Below are positions 277 to 20,646 of a stretch of 21,121 bases of DNA, piece by piece. The stretch lies in the IMG/VR virus record IMGVR_UViG_2690316318_000022, one strand, 5' to 3'. This stretch comes from a virus. Its lineage: Duplodnaviria; Heunggongvirae; Uroviricota; Caudoviricetes. The notes beneath the pieces were generated by a model. That model was not told the origin of the DNA and searched no databases. It saw nothing but the letters and a program-made list of their open reading frames with translations. Numbering within the stretch: the first letter of the stretch is position 1; each line of letters opens with the position of its first letter. Position numbers and translations under genes: made by a program.

Positions 277-1898
277 CAGGCCTGTCTCCCTAGCAGCTCC
301 CAGATGTTCAGGACTGAATTCATTGGGGCATAGTTGATCATCACCGAGTCGGCAAGGTTTGGCGATCGGGTTCCATCAGGCTGTTTATCAATAACGATTT
401 TTCCCACACCATTAATGGAATAGGTCGGCTGCGAAAGCTCGATGATGAGTTTATCTTTGAGTGCCATGCTACTGCTGATTGAGATGATTTCGTCCGGGTT
501 GTAAGCCATACCTTCAACCACGGCGCGCCAGGTATTCTGAAAAAGTTTACGTAACCGCCACCAGCTCTGGGCTTTGGCGTTAGCGAAGAAGTCCTTGTTC
601 AGACGTGCGGCTTGCCCGTTGTCCCCGCGAACAGCTTCATCATCCGGATCAAATACCGCGCCACTACCTCGAAACGGTGTGGCAAGTATTGACGGTCGAC
701 GCGCAGCGTTACGCAGTTCGTTGATAGCGCGTGCATCGCCGCGAACGCCAGCGCCCAGCCCGTCCTCGTCAAAGCGAAACTCTTCGAGGTTGTCCTGTTC
801 GCAAAAGCCGAAAACCTTCTCGACGGACTGATAAATGTCGCTGCCCACACCGGACCATTCCCGCACATTTTCCAGGAGGAAGCCATGACGGGTGGAAAAG
901 GCATTTTTGTCCCTGCCTTCGTCGGCGACATCCATCGCGCCAAGTCGTTTGCCTGTTGGCTGGATACCCAGTTTGATATGCGCATCGACGGCAGCCTGTA
1001 CCCATTCGGATGGAATCAGAACGCCTTCCGCTGATGCGCTGTAGTTCAGATCAAGTTCCTGTGCCACCACCACCGGATTATCGATTTTCTCGCATTCCCT
1101 GCGATACCACTCTTCATCCTTGCGAGGATCATCCCGCCAGTGGAATGTGAATACCGGTATCTTCCCGCCATGACGCTTCTGAGCGAACGGGTTAGCCATG
1201 CCGTTAACTGAACTCAGGTCGATACGGCAACGCGTCGTTTGTGACAACGCCGCATCAATCAGCAGAGGACGCTGAAGGAATGCAGCCTCATCAACCAGAT
1301 AAAGCGTGGTACGGTCACCACGACCAATATTATCGCCAGCCTCGCCTTTGATAACGGCACCAGTTTCAGGAAACTCAACACGCATATATGGCGCGTGCTT
1401 CTTCTCGCTCCACGAACCGCGAAACTCTACAGGTAGCGTTTCCACGAACTTGCGTGCCTTCCAGAACAATGCTTTCGGGTCACCGGTGCTGTCGACGTAT
1501 TCCTCTTTACGGGAGCCGAAACCGATAACCATTTCTTTGTTGAAGAGACAAAGCGAGCAGGCCAGTCCGATCGCGGTCCAACTGAGCCCCATTTCACGGG
1601 ATTTTTCGGTAATACCATTCTCCCGATTGCCCCAGCGTTCCATAATCCAGTGGATCCACTCCTCCTGCTTAGGGAAGAGTAAAAACGGAATGGTCACCGG
1701 CAGGCCATAATCAATATTACGCGGGTCCGTTGTCATGCCCCAGTCGATGATGAACTGAGCCGGATTGGTTCGGTAAAACTGCTTCAATACGGGCAATATT
1801 TCAGGATTCTGGCGAATGCGCTGTAGGCGTTCCATCCGCCATTCAAAAACCATCTGGTAATCAGGATGTTTAAAATCGAAGGGGAATGGTAACGGCAT
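276..1898 (-). CDS. terL: Terminase large subunit (TerL)
   Basis: 540 aa ORF from the track. ATPase-like N-terminal region with a Walker B-like LYLVDEAAF, nuclease-type C-terminal region, immediately downstream of the small terminase gene; typical TerL size. Confidence 0.85.
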
Positions 1899-5425: not shown

Positions 5426-7580
5426 AAACCTTGCATTTTTTCCCCCCAATTCGCCTTTGGGCACGCTTATACCCGCAATTTTGCAAAACATTACTAATTC
5501 GCATTTCTTCGCGTTTTCCGATGCGGTCAGGATTTAGCCCAATCGCATCACGCAAAACATCACTTGCGCGTAAAAATTCGCAATTTCGCGGAAGTTCATT
5601 AGTCATCAGGTCTGGCGTGTCGAGCCATTTCTCTACCGTTTCAAGCCAAGCATCCTTGATGGTGTACTGTTCATGGACACTCGCTGCCAGTTGTTCAGCC
5701 TCACGGAACTGGATACCCCCCAGACGCTGAAACACCTCACGAGCCTCAGCCCAAAGTAAAAGGAGATCTCTTTTTATCGCTTTCACGTCGACTTTCGACA
5801 CTTCCACGGGGAGCCAGCGACGGTTACCAGTCTTGTCCGCAAGGAATTCGTCCTCATTGGTGGTACCAACGAACACCAGGCGACGAGGAAACTGGGTGGC
5901 GAACTCCCGGTATTTCGGGATCCAGTTTTCGTGAGTACGCGTCACAAACGCTTTGATTGACTCCAGCTCTTTGGTATTAAGTCCGCGCAGTTCACCAATC
6001 TCTGCCACCAGCCGACCACGCATTTTTCGAGCGAGATCATCGTCTTTTTCGGCAAAAGAGATTTCAGTAAAAAACGCAGGATCAGGGCTCAGTGCCTCCA
6101 CTCCGGAAGACTTACCGCAGCCCTGCGGACCAACGAGGATCGGCACCATATCCGCTTTGATGCCTGGCTCCAGTACTCGCCCCGCCAACGCGGTCCACAT
6201 GTACATAGACACCGCACGGGTATAAGGCGTGTCGGCGGTACCGAAGTGCGTATGGTAGAAACATTCGATGCGCGGCACGCCATCCCACTCCAGTCCGTTC
6301 AGCCAGGTGATCGCTGAATCGAATGGTTGTTCATCGGCTGCAAGTAACACCACATCGCGAATAAGTTCACGACCAACAGGTTTAAATCCCCGCTTTTCCA
6401 TCGTGATGCGCAGGCGCGCATAATCCGCATCGGTGAAAGCCTGCCACTGGCCGGAGCCTGCCTGGGCGAACATGATTTCGTCACGGAACTGGTCAAAGCG
6501 AATATCGATGTCCACGAAGTCAGGACGCACAACGGCTTTTGCCGCGTTGCTGATGGTGGCCTCGATGCGGCCCCATTTGTCGCGCTCGAACGCCGGCAGC
6601 GGTAACGGCTCGGCCACTTCGGTGCTGGTCAGGTCTTCGAAATCGTCGTTGCGGATCCCGATGGCATTAAGGAAATCGCCGTCGTCGCGGTGCGCGCAGC
6701 TGGCGTGCAGGCACTTAAAATGCCCCTGCTCAAAGCCCGCGGTACCACCCGGGAAGTAAACTGTGCTGGTCGGGTCACCGCCAGTGCTGTGACCGTCTTC
6801 AAACGGGCAGCGGATGTAACGCTCTCCGTTCGCTCCGTCACGTAATGTCCAGCCGTTAGCATCCAGATAATCCGCTGTTTCATCCGTGGCGCCAGGCGTG
6901 AACGTTGAGCGATCGCGCATCTTAGTGCTACCAGCTTCAATGGTTACCGACACAGGGAGTTGTTCAGCCAGGCGCTGCCACAGCGTTTCAAGCTGCTCAC
7001 CAGTAATAGCCGGAGGTTCATCCGGCAAACCGCCGTCCCATTCAATACGCGCGCCGCTGCTGTGCGTACCACAGGCAACGAACTGCTGCCCGTTCGCCAG
7101 CAACTCGATAATGCCCATATCCCCCGCCAGGCGATGGATACGCTTACGGAAATCGCCATCAACAGCCAGCAGGTACAGGCATTTGTTACTGTTGGCGCGC
7201 CAGCGACGCGGTGGCAGCTCGCCAAGCAACTGCACCAGCGTTTTGCGAATATCGGCTTGGATGTCTTCGTCTTCGCTGTCACAGTCCAGCGCCAGCCAGC
7301 CATGGCCTGTACGCACGCAGATCCCATAGTCCGGTTCGTTCGACCAGCGGGCAAAATCATGCTCAGTTACGACGTGCCCAGTCCAGTCGTTAATTCCGGT
7401 AGCCAGACGGTTGCGGTTATACAGGCTCGGCGTTTTGCCAAGCACTTTGAGTTTGCTGTTCGGTGAAATAATCGCGCCCGGATTGCACACGACCGGTAGC
7501 AGCTGGTCCGTACGACCCAGCACCAGGTCGAAGTGGAACCATTCGTCAGGCGTCGCCCCCCACGGTTTGCTATCAGACAT
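5394..7580 (-). CDS. Replication initiator: AEP-type primase/polymerase N-terminal domain fused to an SF3 (D5/P4 alpha-like) helicase
   Basis: 728 aa. Acidic DxD-type motif LALDCDSEDED in the N-terminal region; Cys/His cluster CPFEDGH...HFKCLHASCAH; Walker A VGPQGCGKSS and a Walker B-like acidic stretch in the C-terminal half. Translationally coupled to cro and followed by the iteron array. Confidence 0.8.
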   Translation of the reverse strand: MSDSKPWGATPDEWFHFDLVLGRTDQLLPVVCNPGAIISPNSKLKVLGKTPSLYNRNRLATGINDWTGHVVTEHDFARWSNEPDYGICVRTGHGWLALDCDSEDEDIQADIRKTLVQLLGELPPRRWRANSNKCLYLLAVDGDFRKRIHRLAGDMGIIELLANGQQFVACGTHSSGARIEWDGGLPDEPPAITGEQLETLWQRLAEQLPVSVTIEAGSTKMRDRSTFTPGATDETADYLDANGWTLRDGANGERYIRCPFEDGHSTGGDPTSTVYFPGGTAGFEQGHFKCLHASCAHRDDGDFLNAIGIRNDDFEDLTSTEVAEPLPLPAFERDKWGRIEATISNAAKAVVRPDFVDIDIRFDQFRDEIMFAQAGSGQWQAFTDADYARLRITMEKRGFKPVGRELIRDVVLLAADEQPFDSAITWLNGLEWDGVPRIECFYHTHFGTADTPYTRAVSMYMWTALAGRVLEPGIKADMVPILVGPQGCGKSSGVEALSPDPAFFTEISFAEKDDDLARKMRGRLVAEIGELRGLNTKELESIKAFVTRTHENWIPKYREFATQFPRRLVFVGTTNEDEFLADKTGNRRWLPVEVSKVDVKAIKRDLLLLWAEAREVFQRLGGIQFREAEQLAASVHEQYTIKDAWLETVEKWLDTPDLMTNELPRNCEFLRASDVLRDAIGLNPDRIGKREEMRISNVLQNCGYKRAQRRIGGKKCKVWEPLEPRGTT

Positions 7581-7583
7581 GGG

Positions 7584-7808
7584 TTACACCTTTTGCTGCT
7601 CTGAATTTTCGCCGTTTAATAGCCAGTCAGGATCACATTTAAGAACTTTTGCCAATTCAAGAATGAAGCCAGTACGAGTGGCACGACCGGATTCAAGGTA
7701 CTGAACAGACTGCTGGCGCATACCAACCCTTTCCGCCAATGAAGTTTGGGTTATGCCTAAGGCTTTGCGGCGCTCCTTTATACGTGAAGCAAGAGTGGAA
7801 CCGGACAT
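7584..7808 (-). CDS. cro: Cro-like HTH (XRE family) regulator
   Basis: Small HTH protein (LGITQTSLAERVGMRQQSVQYLESG), first gene of the operon divergent from cI. ATG at 7808 has a GAGGAAG SD; the track ORF starts at an upstream GTG (7823) that I consider less likely. Confidence 0.75.
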   Translation of the reverse strand: MSGSTLASRIKERRKALGITQTSLAERVGMRQQSVQYLESGRATRTGFILELAKVLKCDPDWLLNGENSEQQKV

Positions 7809-7828
7809 AAATAACTTCCTCACATGTT

Positions 7829-7895
7829 TACAGGTTTACTTGTAATTAACCCACAGGCACTCTTGTTTGTCAAATACAGATAGCTCTGTAATTAT
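7829..7895. promoter_or_regulatory. Rightward operator (OR)-like region with divergent promoters for cro (minus) and cI (plus)
   Basis: Two 16-bp sites of form TACAnn-N4-nnTGTA: TACAGGTTTACTTGTA (7829-7844) and TACAGATAGCTCTGTA (7875-7890). Minus-strand -35 TTGACA (7868-7873) with a -10-like GTTAAT; plus-strand -35 TTGTCA (7867-7872) with a -10-like AATTAT (7890-7895). Confidence 0.6.
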
Positions 7896-7917
7896 CAATG
7901 ACAGAAAAGGAGTCGAT

Positions 7918-8547
7918 ATGAATCTTGCTATCCGGGCCAAAAAGCGCAGAACAGAACTCAATTTAACTCAGGTCGAAGTTGCTAAACGAGCGGGCATAAG
8001 CCAGCAGTCAATAGAAGCTATAGAGAACGGCAAAACGCTAAAACCACGTAACCTTCTTGCTTTAGCATCGGCTCTGGAGTGTGATCCTAAGTGGTTACTA
8101 CTCGGGGGTGATGTTGTCACGAATTTCAACTACGGAGCCCGAAGGGTGCCTGTTCTAAGCTATGTACAAGCCGGAGCTTTCACAAGCACTGAACAACTTC
8201 ATGAAGGCGGTGATTTCGAATACATCCTGACAACAACGGAATTATCAGAGCGTTCGTTTGCTCTCCGTATACGCGGAGATTCGATGGAGCCAGAATTTAA
8301 AGAGGGTGACATCGTTATAATTGACACTGACGTATACCCTACCCCTGGCGAATTTGTTGCGGCATGCAATGGTAGCCATGAAGCAACGTTCAAAAAGTAC
8401 CGCCCGGTAGGGATTGGCGCTAAAGGTGAGGAAGATTTTGAACTTGTTCCCTTAAACAGCGATTACCCTATTTGCCGCTCCTGGGAAAAACCTATCAAGA
8501 TTATTGGAACAATGGTGGAGCATCGCATATTCCGCCGAAAAAGATAA
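7918..8547 (+). CDS. cI: CI-like repressor: N-terminal HTH plus C-terminal S24 (LexA-like) autopeptidase domain
   Basis: HTH (LNLTQVEVAKRAGISQQSIEAIENG), candidate Ala-Gly cleavage site in VQAGAF, Ser nucleophile motif GDSMEP and a downstream Lys. ATG at 7918 has a strong AAGGAG SD; the track ORF begins upstream at 7867. Confidence 0.85.
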   Translation: MNLAIRAKKRRTELNLTQVEVAKRAGISQQSIEAIENGKTLKPRNLLALASALECDPKWLLLGGDVVTNFNYGARRVPVLSYVQAGAFTSTEQLHEGGDFEYILTTTELSERSFALRIRGDSMEPEFKEGDIVIIDTDVYPTPGEFVAACNGSHEATFKKYRPVGIGAKGEEDFELVPLNSDYPICRSWEKPIKIIGTMVEHRIFRRKR

Positions 8548-8569
8548 TCGCATCTTCGCTTCAAACAAA

Positions 8570-8591
8570 GAGGGCTATGGCCCTCTTTTTT
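8570..8591 (+). terminator. Rho-independent terminator after cI
   Basis: GAGGGC-TATG-GCCCTC followed by TTTTTT, 23 nt after the cI stop. Confidence 0.7.
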
Positions 8592-8633
8592 ATTCCCTTA
8601 AAAACAAGTAATTAGGTTTTTAATGCAAATTTA

Positions 8634-8677
8634 TACAAGAATACCTGTTGACTTAATTACAGGTTTACTTGTACTTT
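8634..8677 (+). promoter_or_regulatory. Leftward operator (OL)-like site and PL-like promoter directing plus-strand transcription
   Basis: TACAGGTTTACTTGTA at 8658-8673 is identical to the OR site at 7829-7844; a degenerate second site TACAAGAATACCTGTT lies at 8634-8649. -35 TTGACT at 8648-8653 and a -10-like TACTTT at 8672-8677. Confidence 0.5.
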
Positions 8678-8695
8678 TAATCCAACGAAGTAATC

Positions 8696-8707
8696 GCTCT
8701 TTAACAA
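8696..8707 (+). promoter_or_regulatory. boxA-like element (GCTCTTTAACAA) in the leader just downstream of the PL-like promoter
   Basis: 12-nt match to the E. coli rrn boxA core, from memory, about 10-25 nt downstream of the predicted start. Compare lambda nut boxA CGCTCTTA. Confidence 0.4.
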
Positions 8708-8852
8708 ACAGAACCGCGTGACAGGTAAGCCGCAGTGCTCCTGGCAAAACGAAATAGCACCCGATGGGATCGAGGTAAGCGCCGAGTCCGTATGCGTACG
8801 GTAAGCGTAGAGGACAACACCGCGATGAACTGATAAGTCACGCAAGTTGAAA

Positions 8853-8879
8853 CGCCCCGATGATGGGGCGCTTAGTTCC
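8853..8879 (-). terminator. Possible terminator for the minus-strand gene 8922..9491
   Basis: Hairpin CGCCCC-GATGAT-GGGGCG (8853-8870), about 50 nt downstream of the gene's stop. The U-tract on the minus strand is weak (UUUCAACUU), so this is tentative. Confidence 0.35.
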
Positions 8880-8921
8880 TTTAACTCTGGGTGACCGGAA
8901 GGGTACCCATGCTTAAAGAAA

Positions 8922-9491
8922 TTACTGGTTGTAAGGATCGTAATCCGTGATTGCCTTCCCCGGATTTTCATCTTCAGAAGGCAGTCGGGCCTCTAAAGCA
9001 TTTCGGTTGAACAGATAGGAAGCCCTACAGTACGAACAAACCATATTAACGGCTCGCCCAAGGCCTGGCTTAGTAACCAGTCCTTCCGCTTGCAATATAG
9101 ATTTTCTCTTTTGCTCGTAGCAATTGGGACAAATATAAACCGGAGATTGGTCAGCATCTGCAGAAAGCTTGCTGCGATAGACCAGAGTCCCCCGCATAGG
9201 CTGGTAAAGTTCATAGCTCGCCGCTTCAGCGGCCCAGTTCTCTTGCTTTACTTTCTCATTTTCCAGTTCAACAATTTTCTCCTTAGCCGCAATCAGCAGC
9301 TCCTGAAGCGACATTTGCTGCATCTGAACATCCATTAGCTTATCGAGTAAGATGTGCGTCTTCTCTTTAACTGCATAGTCTACAGTCAGATTCTGAATCT
9401 CTCTTGCTGCTCCAACCGCGCTTTTAATTGCTCCTCCCACGCCGGATAACGATTCAGTTATCCGGGAAAGAATTCCTTTTTCTTCAGACAT
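8922..9491 (-). CDS. Hypothetical protein (189 aa): predicted coiled-coil N-terminal region plus C-terminal CxxC...CxxC zinc ribbon
   Basis: ATG at 9491 with a GAGAGAGA SD-like. Heptad-like charged region (LQELLIAAKEKIVELENEKVKQENW), then CPNC...(about 30 aa)...CSYC. Antisense to the PL-driven operon, adjacent to the immunity region. Confidence 0.6.
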   Translation of the reverse strand: MSEEKGILSRITESLSGVGGAIKSAVGAAREIQNLTVDYAVKEKTHILLDKLMDVQMQQMSLQELLIAAKEKIVELENEKVKQENWAAEAASYELYQPMRGTLVYRSKLSADADQSPVYICPNCYEQKRKSILQAEGLVTKPGLGRAVNMVCSYCRASYLFNRNALEARLPSEDENPGKAITDYDPYNQ

Positions 9492-9502
9492 ATCTAATCT
9501 CT

Positions 9503-9552
9503 CTCAAACTGTAGGGGTGAAGAGATATTAGACGATTTCTCACTGTAGGGGT
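9503..9552. repeat. Two direct repeats TCTCA(A)ACTGTAGGGGT in the promoter region of gene 8922..9491
   Basis: ACTGTAGGGGT at 9508-9518 and 9542-9552, each preceded by TCTCA, 34 bp apart, between the divergent gene starts. Confidence 0.45.
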
Positions 9553-9630: not shown

Positions 9631-9656
9631 GCCCGCCGCAAGTGACGGGCTTTTTT
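9631..9656 (+). terminator. Putative plus-strand terminator (tL1-like) between the PL leader and the first early-operon gene
   Basis: GCCCG-(10-nt loop)-CGGGC followed by TTTTTT. Short stem, hence moderate confidence. Confidence 0.45.
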
Positions 9657-12632: not shown

Positions 12633-12683
12633 AAATATTCATCCCCCAGCTACGTGCTGGGGTATCTCATGAGGGAAAGTATA

Positions 12684-13325
12684 ATGTCACAGCCCGTATT
12701 AACTAATCACCTTAAAACTCAAATCATCAATAACGCACTTGAGAAAGCGGGTATTCCCAAACGTAAATCAGCACTACGAGCTGCTCGTGTTGAATGGGCC
12801 GAACGTGTTCGGCTTGCAGCTATCGGGGGCGTAGAGAAAGAAGCTGAAATATTAAAAAATATAAAAAAGATTGAATCCATGGTCACAAAAATCCCTAATT
12901 CATTAAAAACCAATAGTTCTTTAATTCGAAAAGATTGCTGCATATATCTCAATCTGGCTGGAGCCAGAGCAAACATTTATTTCAATGGCAACTACAGAGG
13001 TTATGAATCAGGAGCCCCCGAGCATATTAATAAAATAGCACCTGCAGAATTTACTCTACTTGGCGAAGATCCTCTGGTAACGGAGTTTTATAGCTTTGAT
13101 GCTCTCTACACACAAATTAAAAGTGATGAAACCGAAATCATACAGAACGTCAGCGCGGCTCTAAATAAAGTTCGGACAGTAAAACGATTACTGGATGTAT
13201 GGCCCGAAGCTAAAGAACTGCTTCCAACAGACGCACCGCCAGTCCCTTTAGCACCAGCAGTACATCGAGAGACATTAAATGAAATGATAGGCCTTCCTAC
13301 CAATACAGTGTCTGATACTCAATAA
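12684..13325 (+). CDS. Hypothetical protein (213 aa from ATG 12684; the track ORF starts at GTG 12654)
   Basis: SD GAGGGA 7 nt upstream of the ATG at 12684. Moderately AT-rich. 3' end overlaps the convergent gene by 7 nt. Confidence 0.5.
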   Translation: MSQPVLTNHLKTQIINNALEKAGIPKRKSALRAARVEWAERVRLAAIGGVEKEAEILKNIKKIESMVTKIPNSLKTNSSLIRKDCCIYLNLAGARANIYFNGNYRGYESGAPEHINKIAPAEFTLLGEDPLVTEFYSFDALYTQIKSDETEIIQNVSAALNKVRTVKRLLDVWPEAKELLPTDAPPVPLAPAVHRETLNEMIGLPTNTVSDTQ

Positions 13326-14069: not shown

Positions 14070-16133
14070 ATGTCCAATATACTATGGGGCGACCTGGAAA
14101 CCTATTGTGACATTCCGATCAACAACGGTACCCATGCGTATGCCGAAGGCGTTGAAGTGATGCTTTTCGCATGGGCTATCAACGACGGGCCAGTAAACGT
14201 GTGGGATACCACTGCCGGTGGTGGTATTCCACACGGCTTATACGAAGCAATCGCAGACCCTGAAACCCTGCTTTATTTCCATAACTCTCACTTCGACCGC
14301 ACCGTTCTACGTTATGCAATGCCGCGACTGGCACCGCCAGTCGAACGTTGGCGCGACACGATGGTGCAGGCGCTGGCGCACGGTCTCCCGGGGTCTCTGG
14401 GAGAACTCTGCGAAATACTAGGCGTCCCGCAAGACAAAGCGAAGGACAAAGAAGGTAAAGCGCTGATCCAGCTGTTCTGTAAGCCACGCCCGAAAAACAG
14501 CAAACTGCGTCGGGCCACCAGCAAAACCCACCCAGAAGAATGGCGGCGCTTTGTTGCTTACGCCGGACTGGATATCGAGGCAATGCGCGAAGTCTGTAAA
14601 CGTCTGCCGAAGTGGAATTATCAAGGGACAGAGCTGGCGCTCTGGCATCGTGATCAGCAGATCAACGACCGGGGCGTCTGCATGGACATGCAACTCGCGC
14701 GCGCTGCGATCGAAGCGGTAGACCAGGAGCAAAAGCGCCTGGCAAAGCGTACACAGGAAATGACTGATGGCGAAGTGCAGGCAGCCACACAACGAGACGC
14801 GTTGATTAAGCACATTGTTGAATCCTACGGTGTGGAGCTACCAGACATGCAACGCAGTACTCTGGAACGTCGTATTGCCGACCCCGATTTACCATCTGCC
14901 GTGAAAGAACTGCTGGCTATCCGACTGCAGGCCAGTACTACCAGCACCAGTAAATACAAGGCACTGATGAAAGGCGTAAGCCACGACGGGCGCTTACGCG
15001 GTACGCTACAGTTCTGCGGGGCGTCACGTACCGGTCGTTGGGCCGGACGGCTATTCCAGCCCCAGAATCTTCCCCGCCCTTCACTAAAACAGGAACAAAT
15101 AGACGAAGGCATCGAAGCACTGAAAGCCGGATGTGCAGACCTGCTGTTTGACAATATCATGGAACTAACCAGTTCAGCGTTACGTGGCTGCATTATCGCG
15201 CCAACAGGCAAAAAACTGGTGGTAAGTGACTTGTCGAACATTGAAGGCCGTATGCTGGCATGGCTGGCAGGAGAAGAATGGAAACTGAATGCATTCAGAG
15301 AGTACGACGCCGGAACGGGTCCGGACTTATATAAACTGGCGTATGCAAAAGCTTTCGATATTGCACCAGATGATGTTGATAAACACATGCGTCAGATCGG
15401 TAAAGTCATGGAACTCGGTCTGGGTTATGGTGGTGGTGTGTCGGCCTTCATCACTTTTGCACTGGTTTACGGTCTCGATCTCGACGAGCTGGCAAACGCT
15501 GCACTGCCAAACATTCCCCGCGATGTTATCCGCGAGGCGAAAAGCTGGTACGGCGAATCGGTTAAACGTAAGTCAACCTACGGCCTTTCTGAACGGGTAT
15601 TTATCGCCTGCGACTCACTTAAACGTCTCTGGCGCCGGGCGCATCCCGCGACCTGTGATTTCTGGTACGAACTGGAGCGCACCGTCCGCACTGCAATCGC
15701 CACACCGCAAAAAACATTGTATTGCGGTTATCTTAAAATCCGCCGCGATGGCGCGTGGCTGCGCATACAGCTACCATCCGGACGCGCTGTATGCTACCCG
15801 TCTCCGGTTATCGAAAAAGGGAATATCACCTACATGGGTGTTAACTCTTATTCGCGTAAATGGCAACGACTCAAAACCTACGGCGGAAAGCTGGTGGAGA
15901 ACGTCACCCAGGCGGCCGCCCGCGACGTTCTGGCCGGAAACATGCCGCTTATCGAAGATGCCGGTTACAGCATTGTGCTGACGGTACACGACGAGGTGAT
16001 CACCGAATCACCTGACACAGAAGATTTCAACGATAAAGCGCTTTCCGCGCTTCTCTCCACTAACCCCGAATGGGCGCCCGATATCCCACTGAACGCTGGC
16101 GGTTTTGAGGCGTACCACTACCGTAAGGATTAA
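14070..16133 (+). CDS. Family A DNA polymerase (Pol I-like) with 3'-5' exonuclease domain
   Basis: Exo I motif GDLETY (DxE); polymerase motif A DLSNIEGR; motif [17 protein letters not shown]; motif C VHDEV. 687 aa. Confidence 0.9.
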
Positions 16134-16138
16134 CTCCT

Positions 16139-16354
16139 ATGTCATTTAAATACCGGGATAATCCACTTTATTACAGGGCTGCAAGGGAAGCTTTGCGACT
16201 TGAACAATCCGGCGAATATGACCGGGCAGCGGAGGTCTGGGCAAAAGCCAACCGCGAATCACATCACGAACTGAATCAGGAATGGAGTGAACGCAGATCT
16301 GATTTTTGCCTGATGCAGAACATGCGTGAAAAGCGTAAGGCGGTCGAAGAATGA
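16139..16354 (+). CDS. Hypothetical small protein (71 aa)
   Basis: Track ORF with AAGGA SD, translationally coupled to neighbours. Confidence 0.45.
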   Translation: MSFKYRDNPLYYRAAREALRLEQSGEYDRAAEVWAKANRESHHELNQEWSERRSDFCLMQNMREKRKAVEE

Positions 16355-16650
16355 TCGTTTACGTTGCCGGGCCGATGAGCGGTTACGAGCAATTTAACCG
16401 CCCGGCCTTTCATTCCGCAGCAAAGAGGCTAACGGACAAGGGATATGTTGTGCTTAACCCCGCAACTTTACCCAATGGTTTGACACAGGCTCAGTACATG
16501 GACATCTGCCTCGCAATGCTTCGCTGTGCCGATACGATTTATATGCTCAAAGAGTGGGAGTACTCTGCCGGCGCACGTGCAGAAAACGCGTTGGCAGAGA
16601 AACTGGAATTGAATGTGCTTTTTGAAGAGTGGGATTCAGATGGCCTATGA
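16351..16650 (+). CDS. DUF4406-family protein (nucleoside 2-deoxyribosyltransferase-like fold)
   Basis: N-terminal VYVAGPMSGYEQFNRPAF...VVLNPA pattern characteristic of DUF4406, from memory. Confidence 0.6.
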   Translation: MIVYVAGPMSGYEQFNRPAFHSAAKRLTDKGYVVLNPATLPNGLTQAQYMDICLAMLRCADTIYMLKEWEYSAGARAENALAEKLELNVLFEEWDSDGL

Positions 16651-16909
16651 ACGTGAAAACCTAATCGAGAAGCATCTCGTCGCCGAAGTGAAAAAGGCTG
16701 GTGGGGTCGCCTTTAAGTTCATATCACCTGGTCGCCGCTCGGTACCAGATCGCATTGTTCTGCTACCTGGCGGCCGTCTCGTTTTCGTTGAATGTAAATC
16801 TCCCGGCAAGCCACCACGGCCTGACCAGTTGCGCGAGCATGAACGTCTGCGAAAGCTGGGCTTTACCGTGGTAGTACTGGATAGCAAAAATTTAGAGGGG
16901 ATATTGTGA
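16640..16909 (+). CDS. VRR-NUC domain nuclease
   Basis: PD-(D/E)xK-like core DRIVLLPGGRLVFVECKSPG. Start assigned to the ATG at 16640, overlapping the preceding gene's stop; the track ORF starts at 16613. Confidence 0.7.
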   Translation: MAYERENLIEKHLVAEVKKAGGVAFKFISPGRRSVPDRIVLLPGGRLVFVECKSPGKPPRPDQLREHERLRKLGFTVVVLDSKNLEGIL

Positions 16910-16914
16910 GACAA

Positions 16915-17640
16915 TCATTCTGAGCGATTTTTCTTGAGCTTAGAAGCTTTTAAAAAACATACTTTTAGTTGTTGTGTTTCTTTTATGCTTACAGGAATTA
17001 ATTTCCCCTCAATTCCTTCGACACTCATAAATTCAGAGCTATTTTTTTTACAGTTCCCCAAGACAAATTTTCCGTTATAGCTTTCGATAATATAAGCATC
17101 ATATTTTTTAGAATAAAAAAGAGGCTCATCTGATAAGTATGCCCATGCCCACCCAAGGACTGAAGGAAGCATTGCTATGGATATAAAAAGCATAACCCCA
17201 TGAGTTTTGTTTTTTATTCTAAATTCATTCCTAATAAAAACAGATACTGCCCTGACACTGATAGGGCTAATAAATCCCAATAGTATTGCTTGGGTAGCCA
17301 CATCCCTTATGGATTTTTCATAAAGGTATGAGCTACCGCCATATAAATACATTGTCCAGTATGAAAGCAAAGAGGCCAAAATGAAGAAAAATAAATACAC
17401 CCACCATGGAATATTCTTCTCTTCAGTATCAATATGCAGCAAAGCGACTAAGGTGCACAAAAGTCCTAATGCAATAACAGAAAATTTAACTATTTCCTCA
17501 ATCCCAATAGAAATAAAACTTACAGGGAATCCATAAAATGAGCAGTACCCTTTGTAAAAAGAAAAAGCCATAAAATAAAGGGCGGCCAAGAGAACCGTTG
17601 TAATTGATAAATCTTTTACATTCATGATGTTCAAGAGCAC
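16915..17640 (-). CDS. Hypothetical multi-pass membrane protein (241 aa), AT-rich antisense insert
   Basis: AAAGGTG SD-like before the ATG at 17640. About four or five hydrophobic segments in the first 170 aa and a charged C-terminal tail. About one third GC in sampled stretches, against roughly 55% in the flanks. Convergent with VRR-NUC and divergent from SNF2. Confidence 0.6.
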   Translation of the reverse strand: MLLNIMNVKDLSITTVLLAALYFMAFSFYKGYCSFYGFPVSFISIGIEEIVKFSVIALGLLCTLVALLHIDTEEKNIPWWVYLFFFILASLLSYWTMYLYGGSSYLYEKSIRDVATQAILLGFISPISVRAVSVFIRNEFRIKNKTHGVMLFISIAMLPSVLGWAWAYLSDEPLFYSKKYDAYIIESYNGKFVLGNCKKNSSEFMSVEGIEGKLIPVSIKETQQLKVCFLKASKLKKNRSE

Positions 17641-17663
17641 CTTTCTAATCAGGGATTTTCTTC

Positions 17664-19055
17664 ATGATAACTTTTAAACCACGTCCCTACCAAGATCTCA
17701 TCATCAATCATCAAATCGAGACCCTGCGCGGCAACATCTGGGCAGGGATGGGGATGGGTAAAACCGTAGCGACACTCACCACGCTGGAAGATCTTTTCAT
17801 GGCTGGAGCAGAAACACGCCCCGCGCTGGTCCTCGCGCCGCTACGCGTTGCAGCAAGCACTTGGCCTGATGAAGCTGTTAAATGGGGGCATCTGCGTAAT
17901 ATTGAGGTACAGCCGATCATCGGTAACGCCAAAGCGCGCTCTACAGCGCTGGCGAACAGCAACGCGAGCGTGTTCACAATCAACTACGATAACCTTGTCT
18001 GGCTGGTTGAAGAATTGGGAGAACGATGGCCGTTCGGTACTGTCATTCCAGATGAAAGCACCCGGCTAAAATCCTTCCGGCTGCGAGGTGGTGGTAAGCG
18101 CGCGGCGGCGCTGGGCAAAGTGGCGCACAAGTATGTCCGGCGCTGGATAAATCTCACCGGTACGCCAGCACCGAACGGCCTGGTAGATTTGTGGGGACAA
18201 TCGTGGTTTGTGGACCAAGGGCAACGTCTCGGGCGCACTTACGGCGCGTTTACCTCACGCTGGTTCAAATCGATACAGTTTCCGGGGCAGAGCTGGACCA
18301 AACTGGAGCCTTTTGCTCACTCACAGGGTGAAATACAGCGAGCGTTAGCCGATGTGACCCTCTCGCTGGATGCGGCCGACTGGTTCGATATCAAAGACCC
18401 CATCCATAACGTAATCCGCGTGGATATGCCGCCGAAGGCCCGTCAGCAGTATCGTGAAATGGAAAAGGAAATGTTCCTCGAGCTGAATGGCGAAGGCATC
18501 GAAGCACCGAACGCCGCGGCAAAGACACTGAAGTGTCTGCAAATCGCCAGCGGCGCAGTATACACAGATGACACCGGAAGTTGGTCAGAACTGCATGACA
18601 CCAAACTACAGGCGCTGGACAGCATACTGACCGAAGCAGCTGGCGCACCTGTGCTGGTTGCTTATCACTGGAAACACGATCTTGAACGCTTGCTTAAAGC
18701 ATTTCCTCGCGGTCGTCACCTCGACCAGGATCCACAGACACTACGTGACTGGAATTCCGGAAAGATTCCTGTTCTCTTTGCACACCCAGCCAGCGCGGGC
18801 CACGGTCTGAACATGCAGGACGGCGGAAACATACTGGTATTTTTCTCACATTGGTGGGACCTGGAGCAGTATCAGCAAATTATTGAACGTATCGGCCCAA
18901 CCAGACAGATACAGGCCGGACACAATCGTCCGGTATTTATTCACCACATTATTGCTGCCGACACTATGGACGAAATGGTGATGGAGCGGCGCAACTCAAA
19001 ACGAACAGTGCAGGACATCCTGCTCGATGCCATGAAAAAGAGAGGTATAGCATGA
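17664..19055 (+). CDS. SNF2-family (SF2) helicase/ATPase
   Basis: Q-motif PRPYQ, Walker A GMGMGKT, DExx-type motif VIPDEST, C-terminal helicase domain; 463 aa. Confidence 0.85.
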   Translation: MITFKPRPYQDLIINHQIETLRGNIWAGMGMGKTVATLTTLEDLFMAGAETRPALVLAPLRVAASTWPDEAVKWGHLRNIEVQPIIGNAKARSTALANSNASVFTINYDNLVWLVEELGERWPFGTVIPDESTRLKSFRLRGGGKRAAALGKVAHKYVRRWINLTGTPAPNGLVDLWGQSWFVDQGQRLGRTYGAFTSRWFKSIQFPGQSWTKLEPFAHSQGEIQRALADVTLSLDAADWFDIKDPIHNVIRVDMPPKARQQYREMEKEMFLELNGEGIEAPNAAAKTLKCLQIASGAVYTDDTGSWSELHDTKLQALDSILTEAAGAPVLVAYHWKHDLERLLKAFPRGRHLDQDPQTLRDWNSGKIPVLFAHPASAGHGLNMQDGGNILVFFSHWWDLEQYQQIIERIGPTRQIQAGHNRPVFIHHIIAADTMDEMVMERRNSKRTVQDILLDAMKKRGIA

Positions 19056-19252
19056 GCGAGAAACCCGACGATTTACTCACCCCGGATGAAGTATGCCAAA
19101 AGTTAGGTATTACACAGAAAACGCTATGTGAGTGGAATATTAAGCATCGTCATCGGGCTATCCTGGCACCAATTCGTTTCAGTGCAAAAGTAGTTCGTTA
19201 TGAGCGCCGAAATGTCGACGCTTTCATTCAAAAATGTCGCAGCCGGTATTAA
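19052..19252 (+). CDS. AlpA-type HTH protein, probable excisionase
   Basis: 66 aa with an AlpA-like pattern (LLTPDEVCQKLGIT.KTL..W...........RF...VVRYERR.VDAFI); adjacent to and convergent with int. Confidence 0.7.
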   Translation: MSEKPDDLLTPDEVCQKLGITQKTLCEWNIKHRHRAILAPIRFSAKVVRYERRNVDAFIQKCRSRY

Positions 19253-20646
19253 CCTCGCCGCCGTAGCAATGCCACCTGCGCAAGTATGCTCCGCTCGTGA
19301 GCCTCGAAAGCTTCGCGCTTCAACGCAATCTCTTCCTGTAAAATCTCATCAGAAAAGTCGTAATGTTCTGCCATCGGGTCATCTGACTTGCTGGAGTGGT
19401 GAAGGCAAAGGAGGCTGATTTCCCTTCGGTCTGAGCGGGAATAGCCTCTTTCCTTCATCAAGGCAATAACATTGCTCTTAAGGAATTTACGGCACATCGT
19501 ATTAAATGCACCGTCTTTCCCTTTAACAGTCCCATCATGTTTTATTCCTTTTACAGCCCCGTCCGGGCTGTATGTTTTCACCAGCTTATCCAGTGATCGT
19601 TTTGAAAATGGCTGCATTGGATCACGTGGCTGCAAAAATACATAATCCCTGTTGCACTCAGGAACTGAATCACGCCAGGCTTTCTGCTCGTCGATAATCC
19701 GCCGGATCTCAGGCGTTATCGGCAGCCGGAAAGCCTTTTGTGTTTTCATAGCCCCTCGCATGCCGATAACCCCTTCCGGATAAACAATTTCACCAGCCTC
19801 CTCGTGAACGTAGTCCCAGCGCAGGTTATGGACATTAATCGGACGAACGCCAGTGATGATCATGAAGCGAACAGCATTCTTCTGGTGTACAGAGGTGCAG
19901 GCAGCAACATTGAGCCAGAGTCGGGCGATTGATTCAATATCGGTAAAAAGCCGTGTGGGGGCGGGTTTCTGTACGCGGGAGGAAACATAATCATCTGGCA
20001 AACTGGCGGCAACATTGCGGCCGTTGCAAAGAGTAGGTGCGCAGAACTTCCAGAACCGACGGAGCTCGGCAAACAACTCCAGGGCGTTATTGTTCGAGCG
20101 AGTGGCGATCCACTCGTCCAGCACTTCCACCAGCCGACTGTATGTTACGTCGCTGAACACCTCGCGCTCGCCGAACGTTGCTTTAATCCGGTCGATACGC
20201 ACCCCGTAGGTTGTGAAACTGTCCGGGCTCAGCTTCTGACGGGCTACTTTGGCTTTGAGGTCATCCCGGTACATTTCCAGCGCTGCATGTACGGACTCTG
20301 CCCGCAGTCCACCGTCAGCCATACCTAGTGCTTTTTCGCGCGCCAGCTGGATAGCGAGCTCCGGCCACTCGCCGAGCTTTTTACCTTTGAGGCCCATCTT
20401 TTTTGGAAACTCGGCGTAAAATGTAACCTTACCGGCTTTGCTGAAATCGATACGGAGATAGTTCTCTTTTTCGTATTTGGAACGGCGAGCCACGCCGGAA
20501 GCAGCGAGGATGATTTTGGCGGCAGCAACACAGATTTTCATGTGTGCGCTGGTATAGGGGGGTTTACAGGCGTCCCATTTTTCAGAAGCGGCTAAAACAT
20601 CGTCATTATTGGGGCTATCCAGATTATGTGTTACAGTGCGCGGCAT
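19249..20646 (-). CDS. int: Tyrosine recombinase, lambda Int family integrase
   Basis: Box I-like ITGVRPINVHNLRWDYV and box II-like LLCLHHSSKSDDPMAEHYDF (compare lambda Int HLLGHKSDTMASQYRD, catalytic Tyr). Start assigned to the ATG at 20646 with AAGGA SD; the track ORF starts at TTG 20652 and an internal ATG at 20541 is an alternative. Confidence 0.8.
   Translation of the reverse strand: MPRTVTHNLDSPNNDDVLAASEKWDACKPPYTSAHMKICVAAAKIILAASGVARRSKYEKENYLRIDFSKAGKVTFYAEFPKKMGLKGKKLGEWPELAIQLAREKALGMADGGLRAESVHAALEMYRDDLKAKVARQKLSPDSFTTYGVRIDRIKATFGEREVFSDVTYSRLVEVLDEWIATRSNNNALELFAELRRFWKFCAPTLCNGRNVAASLPDDYVSSRVQKPAPTRLFTDIESIARLWLNVAACTSVHQKNAVRFMIITGVRPINVHNLRWDYVHEEAGEIVYPEGVIGMRGAMKTQKAFRLPITPEIRRIIDEQKAWRDSVPECNRDYVFLQPRDPMQPFSKRSLDKLVKTYSPDGAVKGIKHDGTVKGKDGAFNTMCRKFLKSNVIALMKERGYSRSDRREISLLCLHHSSKSDDPMAEHYDFSDEILQEEIALKREAFEAHERSILAQVALLRRRG

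Follow-up and report, generated by a model that had tools for sequence, protein, structure and literature searches.

The closest described counterpart of the locus considered here is the immunity region of phage 434, for which the fully annotated genome OL657226.1 served as our reference. The operators of 434 follow the pattern ACAA-N6-TTGT, although its OR3 is itself ACAGTTTTTCTTGT (ACAG…TTGT); the outer 5+5 bases of the operator are contacted, the outer 4+4 (ACAA…TTGT) are conserved, and the central four are uncontacted (PMC1636474). The reference genome annotates OR1, the pR -10, OR2, the pRM -35, the pR -35, OR3, the pRM -10 and the PRM start, all of which map onto the DNA described below. 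Use of PR and PRM is reportedly mutually exclusive in 434, and in the 434 co-crystal structures Gln33 makes contact with a base near operator position 4. Phage lambda is the other point of comparison: its operators are 17 bp long and of another sequence, its N-terminal domain has another recognition helix, the -35 hexamers of its PR and PRM promoters do not overlap, and its OR2 is centred ~42 bp upstream of the PRM start.

The window, by which we mean the whole 21,121-nucleotide stretch that was analysed, is an E. coli prophage: positions 7500-9100 are 99.9% identical to several complete chromosomes, and 93 of 5426 complete genomes match the query, with at least 80% of it covered in 25. The segment around cI is very probably where this lambdoid E. 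coli prophage has its immunity (lysis/lysogeny) region, which follows the plan of phage 434. Its genes, and the terminator that follows cI, are arranged as follows:

7808-7584, minus strand: cro-like gene, 74 aa, HTH_3 (Pfam HTH_3, E=2e-14)
7580-5394, minus strand: gene for a VapE-domain primase-like protein
5105-4683, minus strand: Q antiterminator gene
7918-8547, plus strand: cI repressor gene, 209 aa, HTH_3 and Peptidase_S24 (Pfam matches)
8567-8588, plus strand: intrinsic terminator 3' of cI (terminator scan; -13.9 kcal/mol, z = -3.1)

Beyond Q, the minus strand continues with holin, endolysin and terminase genes, whilst an early operon encoding a DUF2800 nuclease, DUF2815, Nmad5, a DNA polymerase and methyltransferases runs on the plus strand from ~9716. 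The order is thus cro (minus), OR, cI (plus), terminator, OL-PL (plus), which is the lambda topology; it is also the gene order of 434. Shared with lambda, too, are the tripartite OR with ~23-bp phasing, divergent PR and PRM promoters, predicted autorepression through OR3, an OL 3' of cI in the same orientation, and a LexA-like C-terminal domain of the self-cleaving type. Unlike 434, this prophage has no hex gene 3' of cI, no cII and no N or nutL boxB, and its replication module consists of a VapE primase and PolA, where 434 has O/P. No cII homologue was found among the Pfam matches or the annotation of the window, and an Rfam scan of the entire window matched no family.

Both regulators belong with those of 434. 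In a PDB sequence search, the best matches to residues 3-63 of cI were 434 Cro (E=2.5e-14) and 434 repressor (E=2e-12), with lambda cI also matching; for the Cro-like protein the best match was 434 Cro (E=1.5e-15), and 434 repressor was found as well (E=2.2e-14). Identity to the 434 proteins is 35% for full-length cI and 50% for Cro. In both systems cI (209-210 aa) combines a 434-type HTH with an S24 domain, Cro is 71-74 aa long, and each of the two proteins has a Q-Q-S helix. The recognition helix of cI is GISQQSIEAIENG, compared with GTTQQSIEQLENG in 434: Gln28, Gln29 and Ser30 are retained, whereas the equivalent of Gln33 is Ala. That of Cro, encoded divergently from cI, is GMRQQSVQYLESG (MRQQSVQY), again of the Q-Q-S type. 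The initial annotation had predicted a repressor specificity distinct from that of lambda, a prediction that appears true but understated, as the helices point to the 434 type. In the C-terminal half, the Peptidase_S24 domain (E=2.4e-18) contains VQAG, GDSM and FKK motifs that align with A111-G112, S149 and K192 of lambda cI; this Ala-Gly site and Ser/Lys dyad predict RecA-dependent induction.

The operators announce themselves through a repeat. Two exact copies of the 17-mer TTACAGGTTTACTTGTA are present in the 21-kb window, at 7828-7844 and 8657-8673; they flank cI, as had been noted at the outset, and lie on the plus strand. No further copies appear when up to three mismatches are allowed, and two or more matches were found in 0 of 100 dinucleotide shuffles. 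The 17-mer contains a 16-bp imperfect palindrome, TACAGG-TTTA-CTTGTA, and scanning was carried out with the pattern TACARR-N4-YYTGTA (12 scored positions), with expectations taken from Markov simulation. At a threshold of at least 11 of 12, four sites were obtained in 21 kb, all within the OR and OL clusters (simulated mean 0.38, maximum 2), and at a threshold of at least 10 of 12 there are five sites in the two regulatory regions. Listed here with their scores and 14-bp cores, together with a weaker candidate, they are:

7829-7844: first OR site, 12/12; predicted OR1, core ACAGGTTTACTTGT at 7830-7843 within the 17-mer at 7828-7844; exact duplicate of OL1; aligns with 434 OR1
7852-7867: second OR site, 10/12, exactly in phase; predicted OR2, core ACAGGCACTCTTGT at 7853-7866; aligns with 434 OR2
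7875-7890: third OR site, 12/12, sequence TACAGATAGCTCTGTA; predicted OR3, core ACAGATAGCTCTGT at 7876-7889, inside the PRM spacer; aligns with 434 OR3
8634-8649: upstream OL site, 11/12; predicted OL2, core ACAAGAATACCTGT at 8635-8648; aligns with 434 OL2
8658-8673: downstream OL site, 12/12; predicted OL1, core ACAGGTTTACTTGT at 8659-8672 within the 17-mer at 8657-8673; exact duplicate of OR1; aligns with 434 OL1
8604-8617: weak, tentative OL3 candidate ACAAGTAATTAGGT; aligns with 434 OL3

The sites start at 7829, 7852 and 7875 in OR, 23 bp apart, and at 8634 and 8658 in OL, 24 bp apart. OR therefore has three clear sites, whilst OL has two clear sites and a weak, positionally conserved third (8604-8617), which lies 31 bp centre-to-centre from OL2, as in 434, and is invariant in three E. 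coli relatives, although its right half-site is poor (AGGT). The operator definition first proposed for this locus was thus sound in the sites that it reported, including a second TACA…TGTA site inside the cI promoter (7875-7890, between TTGTCA at 7867-7872 and AATTAT at 7890-7895), and fell short in the sites that it missed, OR2 (7853-7866) and OL2 (8635-8648): the pattern scan finds three OR and two OL sites in phase, and the operators had been under-counted.

All five predicted operators fit ACA(G/A)-N6-(C/T)TGT over 14 bp. They share with 434 the operator length, the conserved outer ACAx…xTGT and the free centres, and differ from ACAA-N6-TTGT as variants in which the fourth base is mostly G, not A. 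The whole of OR is colinear with 434 OR in a MAFFT alignment, in which an identical 18-nt stretch, CTTGTTTGTCAAATACAG, runs from the end of OR2 across the two -35 hexamers into the start of OR3; OL likewise aligns with that of 434, through OL3, OL2, the -35, OL1, the -10 and TTTTAA. Three OR sites, an OL2 that abuts the pL -35 and an OL1 that overlaps the pL -10 are all features of 434, and OR1 and OL1 are near-identical direct repeats in the 434 design; here they are fully identical over 17 bp. The OR1-OR2 and OL1-OL2 spacings are each 1 bp longer than in 434, and the distance from OR1 to OL1 is 829 bp here, 831-835 bp in the clade with the same helix, 845-854 bp in others and 1228 bp in 434. 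Gene order, phased palindromic sites and colinearity with 434 OR and OL together favour reading the region as an immunity switch, as the initial annotation did.

The promoter elements are:

7867-7873, both strands: TTGTCAA, in which the PRM -35 TTGTCA (plus, 7867-7872) overlaps the PR -35 TTGACA (minus, 7873-7868)
7890-7895, plus strand: PRM -10 AATTAT, with a TG at 7887-7888 provided by the end of OR3; positional equivalent of the 434 pRM -10
7850-7845, minus strand: putative PR -10 GTTAAT, 17 bp from TTGACA; equivalent of the 434 pR -10 GAAAAT
8648-8653, plus strand: putative PL -35 TTGACT, from colinear alignment with the 434 OL region
8671-8677, plus strand: putative PL -10 GTACTT/TACTTT; positional equivalent of the annotated 434 pL -10

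That the -35 hexamers of cro and cI occupy the same 7 bp had been remarked upon before, and holds at the level of sequence: 7867-7873 reads TTGTCA on the plus strand and TTGACA on the minus strand, and the annotated 434 pRM -35 (positions 1744-1749 of the 434 locus, L007, plus strand) and pR -35 (1745-1750, minus strand) align with it without a difference. As in 434, this TTGTCAA sits between OR2 and OR3, where it would provide both overlapping hexamers. The heptamer stands upstream of cI in nearly all tabulated loci with a Q-Q-S/T recognition helix, and all seven columns are invariant in a five-sequence alignment of loci with the same helix. The near-identity of OR1 and OL1 and the overlapping -35s are hence known 434 design and not a new arrangement.

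On the plus strand of the cro-cI intergenic region, the only sigma-70-like promoter called by the scanner is TTGTCA-17-AATTAT with its TG, whose -10 is nearer to the consensus than that of 434 (GAAGAT). By alignment to the annotated 434 start, transcription from PRM is predicted to begin near 7903, which would place the centre of OR2 ~43 bp and that of OR3 ~20 bp upstream; such distances are the geometry known for lambda and 434. In lambda the PRM mRNA is leaderless, whereas the cI ATG of this prophage follows a Shine-Dalgarno sequence, AAGGAG (7907-7912). The consensus-based scanner called neither PR nor PL, and we infer both from their alignment to annotated 434 elements, not from consensus score. 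The PR start, transferred from the 434 annotation, would lie near 7838, and the PL start, as the positional equivalent of the annotated 434 one, is predicted near 8684. The putative PR -10 is without the conserved -11 A (GTTAAT here; GGTAAT, TTAAAT and CAGAAT in relatives); the putative PL -10, TACTTT, matches the consensus at 3/6 positions only, and TTGAC is kept at the PL -35 position, abutting OL2, in members of the family. A minus-strand promoter at OL (TTGGAT-18-TGTAAT), picked out by eye and which would be antisense to the 3' end of cI, was dropped: it is without a 434 counterpart, and the conserved element there is the plus-strand TTGAC -35.

Comparison with related prophages, as had been suggested for this locus, shows that the layout is shared by ~35 loci and that the outer operator bases are invariant in relatives with the same helix. 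Two E. coli relatives, CREC-544 and JNEC-KY176, have a cI that is 96% identical, an identical HTH and DNA that is ~90% identical. Between the window and CREC-544, the cro-cI intergenic region differs at 0 of the 30 outer 5+5 operator positions, at 6 of 12 central-four positions, at 0/7 in TTGTCAA and at 16 of 60 other positions (outer operator positions versus the rest, Fisher p = 3e-4). In OR3 all four central bases have changed whilst the outer 5+5 are identical, and in OR2 the central bases alone differ; OR1 shows no change among the relatives from E. coli, Erwinia and Mixta. OL2 has a degenerate left half (ACCA) in relatives. Invariant outer and variable central positions match the contact pattern of 434 operators. 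A palindromic sequence, phased at 23-24 bp, with conserved contacts and a centre that drifts in relatives, supports the proposal that the 17-mer may act as a repressor operator.

Further afield, prophages of Erwinia, Mixta and Izhakiella have the same recognition helix, a cI identity of 76-89% and the same layout; OR1 equals OL1 in the Erwinia and Mixta prophages too, and in Izhakiella three left half-sites are ACAA instead of ACAG. The ~35 loci with a Q-Q-S/T helix come from Enterobacterales and Gilliamella (Yersinia, Enterobacter, Klebsiella, Citrobacter, Pantoea, Providencia, Gilliamella and others) and share the order O1, 8/9 bp, O2, TTGTCAA, O3, most with ACAG-N6-CTGT operators. Among the loci examined 3' of cI, OL is shared as well, with OL2 abutting TTGAC and OL1 ahead of a TAnnTT -10, and there are further cases, such as CobraSix and 'Ca. 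Pantoea haifensis', in which OR1 is identical to OL1 or OL2. A code in which 434 residue 33 sets operator base 4 was tried and rejected: Providencia (Ser33) and Izhakiella (Ala33) have ACAA, whilst the window (Ala33) has mostly ACAG.

In the GenBank phage collection no cI is more than 58% identical, the closest (54-58%) being those of Yersinia vB_YenM_29.18, Enterobacter CobraSix and Klebsiella ST16-OXA48phi5.2. These three have the same OR/OL layout, the TTGTCAA core and ACAG-N6-CTGT operators; they differ in a helix of the form I(R/T)QQSW… where this prophage has ISQQSIEA, in a fifth operator base that is T and not G, and in carrying cII and O/P-type or helicase replication genes. We found no experimental work on their switches; a literature search with the exact operator sequence returned an irrelevant match only, and one with Gln33 and the consensus operator as text returned nothing. 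The immunity type of the present prophage is itself probably uncharacterised. As the design is that of phage 434, our understanding of phage switches is unchanged; what is gained is a confident map, to the base, of the operators and promoters of an immunity type present in ~90 complete E. coli genomes and in relatives from several genera. Such a map can help in annotating prophages, in predicting their superinfection immunity groups and in selecting orthogonal repressor/operator pairs.

The mechanism that we infer from this arrangement, with its repressor binding, its affinities and how they rank, its transcription starts, activation and induction by SOS, would run as follows. In the lysogen, dimers of the 209-aa, LexA-like cI would place their Q-Q-S helices on the 14-bp ACA(G/A)-N6-(C/T)TGT operators. 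OR1 would cover the start region of leftward PR and OR2 would fill the PR spacer, the two jointly silencing cro, the VapE primase gene and Q. Since OR2 abuts the PRM -35, cI bound there would be positioned to contact polymerase at PRM, in the activation geometry of lambda and 434. As the -35 hexamers of PR and PRM share TTGTCAA, RNA polymerase would hold one promoter at a time; polymerase at PR would exclude PRM, and repressor, in clearing PR, would relieve this exclusion and also free PRM. At high repressor levels, OR3 in the PRM spacer would shut off cI (negative autoregulation). On the other side of cI, OL1 over the PL spacer and -10 and OL2 over the PL -35 would keep the early operon repressed. 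Upon SOS induction, activated RecA would bring about self-cleavage of cI at its Ala-Gly site, PR and PL would fire, and Cro, with the same Q-Q-S helix, would occupy the same operators and keep PRM off.

The limits of this module can be read from phages that share the backbone. In Escherichia phage vB_EcoM-606R2 the genes on either side are the same, but neither the repressor (26% identity) nor the intergenic sequences are related, and its homology to the window resumes exactly at GCTCTTTAACAA (window 8696); with homology only outside these boundaries, 7584 to ~8694 behaves as an exchangeable immunity module. At its right boundary lies one further element:

8695-8707, plus strand: boxA-like CGCTCTTTAACAA, a perfect match to the consensus (expected 6e-4 per window)

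This boxA stands ~12 nt into the predicted PL transcript. A boxB-like hairpin was not found in the PL leader, nor an N gene in the window, be it as an N-like ORF or as a Pfam or PHROG match. Read-through from PL by means of a consensus boxA without N or boxB would be rrn-like antitermination with host factors only, along a ~1-kb untranslated leader. The conserved PL leader (8684-8885) was also considered as a put- or nut-like RNA and set aside: its fold is no better than that of shuffles (z = 0.55), and a distant DNA search with it returned four near-identical phages only, too few for covariation. Between PL and the early genes we also observed a convergent 189-aa gene (phrog_1244, 9491-8922), whose ORF had no match in PADLOC, and a plus-strand terminator at 9632-9656; a hairpin at 8853-8870 is also on the path of a PL transcript.

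Whether this architecture comes with a specificity of its own is a separate question. We give somewhat less than even chances to the ISQQSIEA cI clade being an uncharacterised specificity of the 434 family, heteroimmune to 434 and with G or A at operator position 4; if true, the clade and the ~35 natural repressor/operator sets, all of one fixed architecture, would form a series across which the recognition code of the 434 HTH can be compared. It is unlikely, in our estimation, that the specificity is not new and that the repressor cross-recognises 434 operators, in immunity group 434 or one partly overlapping with it. Conservation of the Q-Q-S helix between cI and 434 repressor speaks for such an overlap, as do operator half-sites of which half are 434-like (ACAA in OR1, OR2 and OL2, and ACAG…TTGT in the OR3 of 434) and the ACAA of three left half-sites in Izhakiella, with its same recognition helix; on the other side, no operator here lacks an ACAG half and both halves of OR3 are ACAG, the equivalent of 434 Gln33 is Ala, the two N-terminal domains have many further differences, and the full-length proteins are only 35% identical. 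Against the 434-plan account in general we count the weak -10s of PR and PL, the weak OL3, the left half of OL2 that is degenerate in relatives, the missing cII and N, and the terminator at 9632-9656. It is nonetheless highly improbable that the repeats are relics of a decaying prophage, or bound by another factor, and no longer form a switch: nothing speaks directly for decay, the only hints being that the -10 hexamers are weak and that cII and N are missing, whilst cI and cro are intact here, a 99.9% identical prophage is annotated with intact genes for lysis, terminase, Q and polymerase, selection acts across genera on the bases of the operator that are contacted, and same-backbone siblings with a different immunity module (vB_EcoM-606R2 and others) have been deposited as phage genomes.

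With the 434 plan retained for the switch as a whole, the reach of its PL arm has to be weighed separately. The promoter at OL1/OL2 could yield a non-coding transcript only, of ~1 kb, antisense to the 189-aa gene and ending at 9632-9656, with the early genes separately promoted. There is indeed no plus-strand ORF between ~8684 and 9695, the 189-aa gene at 9491-8922 is convergent, and at 9632-9656 a plus-strand hairpin is followed by TTTTTT and conserved in locus L003; yet the perfect boxA at ~+12 of the PL transcript suggests processive antitermination, L003 has the same promoter and boxA followed by plus-strand genes only, and the PL transcripts of 434 and lambda cross terminators too. We regard such a short transcript as improbable, and a PL that drives the early operon, as on the 434 plan, as the better reading.

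Upstream of the 189-aa gene, we also observed an 11-bp direct repeat, ACTGTAGGGGT.

Several distinct elements lie between PL, the predicted rightward promoter beyond cI, and the early operon (listed by window position).

8695-8707, plus strand: boxA, CGCTCTTTAACAA, a perfect match to the consensus, about 12 nt 3' of the predicted PL start
8708-8850, plus strand: non-coding stretch downstream of boxA
8853-8870: stable hairpin after the 189-aa ORF
8922-9491, minus strand: ORF of 189 aa, phrog_1244 (unknown function), convergent with PL
9031-9021, minus strand: third copy of the 11-bp repeat, with one mismatch, within the 189-aa ORF
9508-9518 and 9542-9552, plus strand: two exact copies of the 11-bp repeat ACTGTAGGGGT, just 5' of the start of the 189-aa ORF
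9632-9656, plus strand: hairpin GCCCG-N10-CGGGC with TTTTTT at its 3' end, past PL and ahead of the first early genes

An exact 13-mer such as the boxA is expected by chance only 6e-4 times per window, and it is exactly at this element that sequence homology to the heteroimmune phage vB_EcoM-606R2 has its left edge; neither an N-like gene nor a boxB-like hairpin was found alongside it. Four Escherichia phages, as well as E. coli relatives, share the non-coding stretch that follows with 97% conservation; the predicted RNA fold of this stretch is no better than that of shuffled sequences (z = 0.55), and it has no match in Rfam. Further downstream, the terminator-like hairpin has a counterpart in L003 (4641-4667), a relative with the same PL and boxA, where the stem is kept and the loop differs. 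Given this hairpin, either the early genes would need a separate promoter of their own, or PL transcripts would need antitermination.

The convergent 189-aa ORF, for which Pfam and PADLOC gave zero matches, looks like an exchangeable accessory gene, or moron: in E. coli JNEC-KY176 its place is taken by a plus-strand 68-aa gene and an HNH endonuclease. The exact repeats beside it are spaced 34 bp apart, and three copies were reached in 0/100 shuffles. They may constitute a regulator-binding site.

On the other side of the switch, the stop of cro overlaps the start of a VapE primase-like gene (7580-7584). Here the cII gene is absent, as is space for a nutR site, whereas cII does lie downstream of cro in 434 and in the relatives from Yersinia and Klebsiella. 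The -10 element of PRM, the cI promoter, also differs: TG-n-AATTAT is nearer the consensus than the GAAGAT of 434.

Across the 434-type loci compared (L009-L035, L043, L084 and L085; region upstream of cI at ~1380-1500), natural recognition helices include QQSIEQ, QQSIEA, QQSW(Q/A/G)(S/A), QQSYQA and QQS(V/I)ES. The operator arms vary along with the helix (ACAA, ACAG, ACCA/TAGT), and the OR architecture is fixed throughout. This variation follows no simple one-residue/one-base rule.

Finally, RefSeq annotation of the identical prophage places within the early operon (12654-13325 and 14070-19400, plus strand) a putative nucleotide-modification protein of the Nmad5 family, together with a family A DNA polymerase, a SAM-dependent methyltransferase and a DNA cytosine methyltransferase – a gene set which suggests that the phage modifies DNA.
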